The notes under the pieces: model-generated
Seen by the model: the letters and a program-made list of their open reading frames with translations, nothing else
Database searches by the model: none
Told to the model about the DNA's origin: nothing
Assembly (NCBI RefSeq): GCF_003334785.1
Contig: NZ_QOWV01000025.1
Strand: one strand, 5' to 3'
Length of the DNA: 41,323 nucleotides
From: Escherichia coli
GTDB taxonomy: Bacteria; Pseudomonadota; Gammaproteobacteria; Enterobacterales; Enterobacteriaceae
In this document: one piece after another, positions 36,627 through 37,808 of the stretch
How positions within the stretch are numbered: the first letter of the stretch is position 1
How the letters are laid out: each line of letters starts with the position of its first letter
Translations under genes and position numbers: made by a program

Positions 36627-37303
36627 TGACAATGCTACTGCCGCTCTTCATTCTGGTTGGTTTTATTGCAGGTTATTTTGTTAATGCCATCGCCTATCAC
36701 CTCTCGCCGTTGGAGGATAAAACGGCGTTAACGTTTCGCCAGGTATTGGTTCATTTCAGGCAAAAAAAATATGCCTGGCATGATACAGTGCCCCTGATAC
36801 TTTGTGTTGCTGCTGCTATCGCCTGCGCCCTGGCACCTTTCACGCCCATCGTGACTGGCGCACTCTTTCTCTATTTCTGTTTCGTACTCACGCTCAGTGT
36901 TATTGATTTTCGCACTCAGCTCCTGCCCGACAAACTCACCTTACCGCTGCTCTGGCTTGGCTTGGTATTTAATGCGCAGTATGGATTAATTGATTTACAT
37001 GATGCGGTTTACGGCGCGGTAGCGGGCTATGGGGTGCTGTGGTGTGTTTACTGGGGCGTCTGGTTAGTTTGTCACAAAGAGGGATTGGGCTACGGTGATT
37101 TCAAGCTACTGGCCGCTGCAGGCGCATGGTGTGGCTGGCAAACGTTGCCAATGATACTGCTGATTGCCTCGCTGGGTGGCATTGGTTACGCCATCGTTTC
37201 ACAACTTCTGCAACGCCGGACTATAACCACTATCGCATTCGGCCCGTGGCTTGCGCTCGGCAGCATGATAAACCTGGGGTATCTGGCCTGGATCTCTTAT
37301 TAA
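36626..37303 (+). CDS. gspO: Prepilin peptidase / N-methyltransferase GspO, 225 aa
   Basis: Polytopic membrane protein with conserved GYGDFKLL region of prepilin peptidases. Confidence 0.93.
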   Translation: MTMLLPLFILVGFIAGYFVNAIAYHLSPLEDKTALTFRQVLVHFRQKKYAWHDTVPLILCVAAAIACALAPFTPIVTGALFLYFCFVLTLSVIDFRTQLLPDKLTLPLLWLGLVFNAQYGLIDLHDAVYGAVAGYGVLWCVYWGVWLVCHKEGLGYGDFKLLAAAGAWCGWQTLPMILLIASLGGIGYAIVSQLLQRRTITTIAFGPWLALGSMINLGYLAWISY

Positions 37304-37304
37304 C

Positions 37305-37324
37305 CGGGAGGGTTCTCCCTCCCG
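37305..37324. terminator. GC-rich hairpin shared by convergent gspO and bfr 3' ends
   Basis: Perfect 8-bp stem CGGGAGGG / CCCTCCCG with loop TTCT, in the 28-bp gap between the two stop codons; no strong U-tract on either side. Confidence 0.55.
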
Positions 37325-37331
37325 ACACGGC

Positions 37332-37808
37332 TCAACCTTCTTCGCGGATCTGTGCTTGCAGATAATTTTGCAGGCCCATCTTCTGAATCAGATCAAGTTC
37401 CGTTTCCAGCCAGTCGATATGGCCTTCTTCATCACGCAAAATTTCTATCATCATATCGCGGCTGACGTAATCATGAACGCTATCGGCATAACCAATTGCC
37501 TCACGCAAATTCTTCGCGCCATCCAGCTCAAGTGCCAGATCAGAACGCAGCATTTCCTCAACATCTTCACCAATGTTCAGTTTGCCCAGGTCCTGTAAGT
37601 TTGGAAGACCTTCCAGAAAAAGAATGCGCTCAATATAACGATCGGCGTGTTTCATCTCATCAATGGATTCATGATACTCCACATCATTGAGACGTTTGAG
37701 ACCCCAGTTTTTAAACATTCGGGCATGGAGAAAGTACTGATTGATTGCGACAAGCTCATTTCCCAACAGTTTGTTGAGATAATTTATAACTTTAGTATCA
37801 CCTTTCAT
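37332..37808 (-). CDS. bfr: Bacterioferritin, 158 aa
   Basis: [37 protein letters not shown]... ferritin-like four-helix-bundle ligand pattern. Confidence 0.97.

Follow-up and report, generated by a model that had tools for sequence, protein, structure and literature searches.

A hairpin without a U-tract between the convergent gspO and bfr genes of Escherichia coli is probably the 3′-terminal stem-loop of the bfd-bfr mRNA

Bidirectional terminators between convergent genes were reportedly the subject of SEnd-seq work by Ju et al. in 2019. For convergent genes, Wang et al. (bioRxiv 10.1101/2022.10.23.513370) described a collision model in which termination depends on a stem-loop. A different class of 3′ end was described by Dar and Sorek (2018, NAR, PMC6061677), that is, stable stem-loops devoid of a U-tract at which Rho-terminated transcripts have their precise steady-state 3′ ends, the stem-loop protecting against PNPase and RNase II and the sequence downstream being richer in C than in G. 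REP elements, according to Harris et al. (bioRxiv 10.64898/2026.03.23.713779), stabilise the upstream mRNA and give partly Rho-dependent attenuation, and where a REP separates convergent genes, both genes tend to be more highly expressed (same source). The hairpin analysed here lies between the stop codons of gspO and bfr in E. coli. Like the bidirectional terminators, it is one stem-loop common to two convergent genes, but its flanks (GCCGTGT and GTTAATAA) lack the A-tract/U-tract symmetry, a 3′ end has been mapped on one strand, and one of the two operons is silent. Like a REP, it is an extragenic palindrome at a 3′ end; unlike a REP, it is single-copy, unrelated in sequence and much shorter in the stem. 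With canonical terminators such as those of tufA and ryhB it shares a G:C-rich hairpin of similar energy, a location just past the stop codon and a precise 3′ end, whereas it has no 7-8-nt U-tract, its RNA ends at +4 and not at +7 to +8, and its terminator discriminant is negative. The locus is one of E. coli K-12, and both its 3′ end, which is contained in a published table, and the class of stem-loop described by Dar and Sorek are already known.

The window, i.e. the whole stretch of DNA analysed, comprises 41,323 nt of the E. coli contig NZ_QOWV01000025.1, and MG1655 (NC_000913.3) coordinates are obtained by adding 3,428,917 to the window position. It corresponds to the K-12-type insertion between tufA and rpsJ, with chiA, bfd and bfr followed by the convergent genes gspO back to gspC. 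A 451-bp query covering the junction was 100% identical to K-12 derivatives, where the two genes are annotated as gspO and bfr (Table 1). Laboratory cultures hardly express the gsp operon, and in K-12 it is said to be silenced by H-NS (work of Francetic et al. in 2000). The two stop codons are separated by 28 bp (37304-37331), 20 of which are taken up by the stem and loop (37305-37324). An inverted-repeat search returned a stem of 8 bp with 100% complementarity (seven G:C pairs and one A:T pair) and a 4-nt loop, and a ninth, U.G pair is possible on the minus strand. The 28-nt gap has a minimum free energy of -17.6 kcal/mol (plus strand) and -17.1 kcal/mol (minus strand), with z = -4.0 and -3.1, respectively, and dinucleotide shuffles folded equally well in 0/200 and 1/200 cases. 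The bfr-sense tail immediately after the stem (GUUAAUAA) has three U in eight positions, with UU at +2/+3 and U at +6, and the gspO-sense tail (ACACGGCU) has one U in eight. That is, a U-tract is absent after the hairpin on both strands, and a simple scan for a hairpin followed by a T-run makes no call. The first-pass annotation of this DNA had reported convergent gspO and bfr genes, a 28-bp gap and a perfect 8-bp GC stem with no clear U-tract on either side; the anatomy proved right in every particular, and the missing U-tracts are confirmed by the counts just given.

Table 1. Coordinates of the features discussed in the text (window positions unless a locus or MG1655 is named)
Feature	Position	Strand	Remarks
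gspO CDS, prepilin peptidase, b3335, final gene of the cryptic gspC-O operon	36626-37303	+	ORF list, annotation
gspO stop codon TAA	37301-37303	+	stem begins 1 nt later
Hairpin left arm, CGGGAGGG on the + strand	37305-37312		3′ arm CCCUCCCG of the bfr-sense RNA
Hairpin loop, TTCT on the + strand	37313-37316		AGAA in the bfr-sense RNA
Hairpin right arm, CCCTCCCG on the + strand	37317-37324		5′ arm CGGGAGGG of the bfr-sense RNA
Single-stranded spacer of 7 nt, bfr stop to stem	37325-37331	-	GCCGUGU in the RNA
bfr stop codon TGA	37332-37334	-	+ strand reads TCA
bfr CDS, bacterioferritin	37332-37808	-	ORF list, annotation
Steady-state 3′ end of the bfd-bfr mRNA	37301 (MG1655 3466218)	-	RNA ends ...CCCUCCCGGUUA; Adams et al. 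2021
C-rich, G-poor tract, candidate rut site, antisense to gspO	36965-37104	-	36-42% C, 12-15% G, C/G ~3
tufA terminator	41177-41204 (perfect hairpin 41179-41202)	-	mapped 3′ end 3470093(-)
hopD-embedded hairpin	L002 2903-2952	-	also in L017, L019, L024, L054, L055

Perfect hairpins of at least 8 bp with at least seven G:C pairs occur twice in the 41-kb window, compared with 0.24 expected from 100 shuffles; with about 0.24 such hairpins expected per window, chance placement of one of them in this particular 28-bp gap is very unlikely. No second copy of the hairpin was found in the window when up to two mismatches were allowed, and BLAST with a 30-nt query at E-values up to 10 gave one copy per E. 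coli genome carrying the hairpin. Rfam searches of positions 36000-39000 at permissive E-values yielded matches at chance level, none of them on the hairpin. With a single copy per genome and in the window, and no Rfam family, an identity as REP/BIME or other dispersed repeat was rejected. Further perfect hairpins of at least 8 bp are present in the window at 10657-10686, 8979-9006, 19345-19374, 5343-5365, 41179-41202 and 38177-38235, of which the one at 10657-10686 (TAAAAAAACCCGCCGGGGCGGGTTTTTTTA) resembles a textbook bidirectional terminator. In addition, two tandem hairpins lie 3′ of chiA.

The first-pass annotation had proposed Term-seq as a check, and for the bfr side a published 3′ end does fall at the hairpin on the minus strand. 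In the Term-seq data of Adams et al. (2021, eLife, PMC7815308), the 3′ end 3466218(-) is classified as 'primary' for bfr and 'antisense' to gspO, and each of the three tabs of Supplementary file 1 contains it (LB OD 0.4, LB OD 2.0 and M63). Two of the three tabs give 45,215 and 2,955,315 reads for this position, which, judged from the order of the tabs in the caption, appear to be those of LB OD 0.4 and LB OD 2.0, respectively. The end sits 4 nt beyond the 8-bp stem. In the same tables (PMC7815308) the tufA terminator ends at 3470093, 7 nt past its G:C stem, and the ryhB terminator ends at 3580923, which is the eighth U. On the gspO-sense (+) strand no 3′ end is listed at 346624x/346625x in the three conditions (PMC7815308), in which gsp is hardly transcribed. 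An additional 3′ end lies inside bfr at window position 37549 (3466466-; 31,650 reads, Supplementary file 3 of Adams et al.), and it may be a decay intermediate or a premature termination site. Literature searches returned no paper specifically on the terminator or hairpin of E. coli bfr, the matches being M. tuberculosis bfrB, Bordetella bfrG and unrelated work; in the RNase E-CLASH work RyhB and Esr41 repress bfr translational fusions, and none of that work bears on the 3′ hairpin.

Measured against a canonical intrinsic terminator, the hairpin has the expected G:C-rich stem (8 bp, seven G:C pairs), no U-rich tract of 7-8 nt after the stem on either strand, and a 3′ end at +4 where about 7-9 nt past the stem would be typical, a difference that could be due to trimming after release. 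A discriminant of the d'Aubenton-Carafa type, which is a rough guide only since the formula of the 1990 paper was combined with modern energy parameters, gave -20 to -6 for the hairpin in the bfr sense and -39 in the gspO sense, versus +30 for the tufA terminator and +41 for the ryhB terminator.

Supplementary file 2 of Adams et al. (PMC7815308), based on DirectRNA-seq with and without bicyclomycin, contains a Rho termination region at 3466021(-), i.e. window position 37104, antisense to gspO (Rho score 3.12, p = 4e-8). On the bfr strand this coordinate is reached 197 nt after the hairpin, but the counts are low (146/46 untreated vs 123/121 with bicyclomycin, in 800-nt windows), and promoters within the H-NS-silenced gsp DNA, as opposed to read-through from bfr, could account for part of the signal antisense to gspO. 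Two other Rho termination regions are given in the same file, one within gspO on the sense strand at 3465921(+) (window 37004) and one antisense to gspL at 3464882(-) (window 35965). Both strands of the silent gsp operon appear to be kept in check by Rho, and the regions at 3465921+ and 3466021- suggest that transcription through the junction is limited by Rho and not by the hairpin alone. The C-rich, G-poor tract of Table 1 extends from +200 to +340 nt past the hairpin and begins exactly at the published Rho coordinate 37104. The first ~100 nt past the hairpin in the bfr sense are not C-rich (C/G 0.6-0.9).

Within E. coli, the junction with the gspO-bfr gap is present in 3160/5426 complete genomes, 3115 of which share one 30-nt sequence that includes the stem-loop. 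Three sampled variants carry their changes at coding positions on either side or in the spacer (C to T at 37328), with the stem unchanged in all; variation within the species is too low for a covariation test. The junction query gave 3166 matches, one of them on a plasmid-typed record. Strain FCI56 carries an IS1A copy in the last gspO codons (L001 ~2248-2990; window ~37282-37291), with a 9-bp target duplication (tctggcctg), and in this strain the hairpin and the adjoining bfr are intact. The other allele, found in 2234 E. coli genomes, has a bfr gene of ~81-82% DNA identity, no chiA and no gsp operon. Its convergent gene encodes a 155-aa peptidase of the hopD type, and the CDS overlaps bfr by 4 bp such that the stop codons overlap and there is no gap; this bfd-bfr-hopD arrangement has been described for Salmonella. 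E. coli is therefore dimorphic between tufA and rpsJ (window 24045-40936; compare L002, L003 and L004), with 3160 genomes carrying chiA-bfd-bfr plus gsp and 2234 carrying bfd-bfr-hopD. The bfr alleles are unusually divergent for a shared E. coli gene, which suggests block replacement or ancient alleles.

The comparison beyond E. coli used one genome per species with Bfr, giving 80 loci. At nearly every sampled locus where gspL-gspM-gspO converge with bfr, a gap of 31-38 bp contains a hairpin of -14.9 to -17.7 kcal/mol (z = -3.3 to -6.7). These loci belong to Yokenella, two Chimaeribacter, Enterobacter sichuanensis, two Citrobacter, Trabulsiella and the enterobacterial lineage UBA5654. The same gap hairpin occurs in Kosakonia oryziphila, where chiA and the peptidase gene are at the locus and gspL and gspM were not detected in the available sequence. 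Rahnella (L083, L086), which has kept gspL and gspM, has a gap of 11 bp, and the hairpin is within the peptidase CDS. The gap hairpins differ in sequence: that of Trabulsiella is a textbook A-tract/stem/T-tract arrangement, whereas most others, like that of E. coli, have no U-tract. In a MAFFT alignment of 11 junctions some hairpins were one column off register, and pairs were therefore counted only in the four hairpins that align unforced (E. coli, UBA5654, Enterobacter and Kosakonia). Here, 35/35 cells pair and four of the nine pairs have changed on both sides, a level matched by 1/500 shuffles and by none of the slid controls, in a test comprising four sequences from about three independent lineages and a structure chosen by the analyst. 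Between close species pairs, differences are found in the loop or flanks and the stem is unchanged. One MAG labelled 'Citrobacter sp. HRGM_Genome_0066' (L008) has a Bfr and hairpin identical to those of K-12, with ChiA, GspL and GspM ~96-97% identical, and it is probably a mislabelled or chimeric Escherichia bin.

At loci with only hopD, the gap hairpin is missing, and bfr and hopD share 4 or 17 bp. Several of these loci have, within hopD and 25-85 nt past the bfr stop, a hairpin of the form CCCGC(A/U)GCCG...CGGCAG(C/U)GGG followed by five or six U (U6 in IAI1). This hopD-embedded hairpin (CCCGCAGCCG...CGGCAGCGGG) lies antisense in hopD, and a 98-nt stretch containing it folds at ~-24 kcal/mol; with a loop of more than 8 nt it was missed by the simple terminator scan and was assessed by folding. 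It was found in E. coli IAI1, Silvania, Enterobacter chuandaensis, Kosakonia and Kluyvera, and is probably a bfr terminator lodged in the convergent gene. In Pantoea, Erwinia, Xenorhabdus and Photorhabdus, which have no peptidase gene there, an ordinary hairpin with a T-run comes after bfr. In most sampled contexts, then, a 3′ stem-loop follows bfr, and its position, sequence and U-tract vary. Rahnella (L083, L086; +20 to +55 past the bfr stop) and Hafnia psychrotolerans (L075; +25 to +60) carry a 9-11-bp hairpin (ACAUCAGCCAG...CUGGCUGAUGU) in the 3′ part of the peptidase CDS, and in both the convergent peptidase gene ends 1-11 bp from bfr.

We consider it likely that the gap hairpin is the 3′-terminal stem-loop of the bfd-bfr mRNA, acting as an exonuclease barrier that fixes and stabilises the 3′ end, and is not a canonical Rho-independent terminator. 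Its features match the class of Dar and Sorek, which is the reason for reading it as a 3′-end cap: a stable stem-loop (-17 kcal/mol) directly upstream of a dominant, precise 3′ end, no U-rich tail, no upstream A-tract (the upstream sequence being GCCGUGU), and both C>G enrichment and a bicyclomycin-sensitive region downstream. What sets the bfr case apart is that the stem-loop has a convergent stop codon on each side and that the rut-like tract is antisense to a silent gene. We infer the following order of events. RNA polymerase transcribing bfd-bfr would pass the bfr stop codon, and the stem-loop would be made 7 nt later. With no U-tract, most polymerases would not be released at the hairpin, which would cause at most weak termination or a pause; the fraction reading through is likewise inferred. 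The polymerases would then enter untranslated RNA antisense to gspO, where Rho could load on the C-rich, G-poor tract ~200-340 nt downstream and terminate transcription. Finally, 3′-to-5′ exonucleases, presumed here to be PNPase and RNase II, would trim the tail back to the stem and leave the end 4 nt past it. The first-pass annotation had offered an RNA-stability element as one of two roles for the hairpin, and this role gains support from a dominant bfr 3′ end at that distance in three growth conditions.

A role as a weak, one-directional intrinsic terminator of bfd-bfr, with the strong G:C hairpin and an imperfect U-tract (GUUAAUAA) freeing a sizeable fraction of polymerases, Rho clearing the leak and the +4 end reflecting minor trimming, is in our judgement unlikely, even if it accounts for several observations. 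It would fit the presence of a very stable hairpin directly at the dominant, precise 3′ end, the UU at +2/+3 and U at +6, and the resemblance of the orthologous gap hairpins of Trabulsiella (UUUUUGUU tail) and Enterobacter sichuanensis (UUUACUUA) to true bfr-side terminators. Mixed or transitional cases have moreover been discussed by Dar and Sorek (PMC6061677), and REP325 is both a terminator and a stabiliser (bioRxiv 10.64898/2026.03.23.713779). A tail with only three U in eight, a discriminant that is negative where those of tufA and ryhB are positive, a 3′ end at +4 and not +7 to +9, and a bicyclomycin-sensitive region with a rut-like tract further downstream all argue the other way. So does the position of the bfr stop codon 7 nt before the stem, as a terminating ribosome would, from the size of its footprint, cover the stem base and part of the proximal arm. 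Some intrinsic termination at +7 to +9, with a few nucleotides trimmed off afterwards, could still occur at a strong G:C hairpin that precedes GUUAAU; steady-state 3′ ends fit both routes, and the hairpin may thus make a weak intrinsic contribution.

Much less probable is a bidirectional terminator or insulator serving both convergent operons, possibly through head-on RNA polymerase collisions positioned by the stem-loop; as an insulator of the silenced gsp operon this was the other role suggested in the first-pass annotation, and it found no support. The palindrome does fold equally well on either strand and fills the gap between convergent stops, junction hairpins are kept in the sampled loci that retain the gsp operon, with both an A-tract and a T-tract in Trabulsiella, and stem-loop-dependent collision termination has been described for convergent genes (bioRxiv 10.1101/2022.10.23.513370). 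The collision model, however, needs converging polymerases, which must be rare in K-12 since gsp is silent. No plus-strand 3′ end maps to 346624x/346625x in three conditions, the gspO-sense tail has a single U and the poorest score, and a Rho termination region already lies within gspO on the sense strand (3465921+). Furthermore, the gspO stop is 1 nt from the stem, and a ribosome terminating there would, by the same footprint argument, cover the whole proximal arm and hold the stem open. The 2234 E. coli genomes with the hopD allele also have a bfr/peptidase junction with no gap hairpin, which further weakens the insulator claim. Least credible of all is that the hairpin is a chance palindrome or a functionless relic of a REP-like mobile repeat: with 20 nt it is short, and none of the variation in E. 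coli would by itself prove selection, but it belongs to no repeat or Rfam family and is single-copy, a major RNA 3′ end has been mapped exactly to it, and positionally equivalent hairpins with compensatory changes exist in other genera, against the ~0.24 such hairpins expected per 41 kb.

The protective 3′ stem-loop favoured here can be extended into a more speculative proposal, which we regard as improbable. Accordingly worded, the gap hairpin would be an ancient, compensatorily evolving 'double cap' that protects both convergent mRNAs in enterobacteria with a chitinase-secreting gsp operon beside bfr, the bfd-bfr mRNA always and the gspC-O mRNA when H-NS silencing lifts, and the 2.96 million stationary-phase reads could stem from a stable bfr 3′ fragment that is capped by the hairpin, accumulates and functions in its own right.

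The bfr hairpin provides a clean, documented E. coli case of a 3′ end set by a stem-loop with no U-tract. Predictors that look for a hairpin plus T-run overlook such features, and this hairpin should not be annotated as a bidirectional terminator; outside careful annotation the importance is small. Of modest further interest are that the gap hairpin evolves by compensatory change from genus to genus and that the alternative E. coli allele has a probable terminator within hopD. Anyone engineering bfr or the cryptic gsp operon should leave the 28-bp gap attached to bfr. Across the loci compared, bfr ends in one of three ways: at the gap hairpin where gsp is present, at a probable terminator inside the hopD CDS where bfr and hopD overlap, and at a canonical terminator in the absence of a convergent gene. 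The bfr loci thus illustrate a 3′ stem-loop that is under selection while its sequence, its position and its U-tract are interchangeable.
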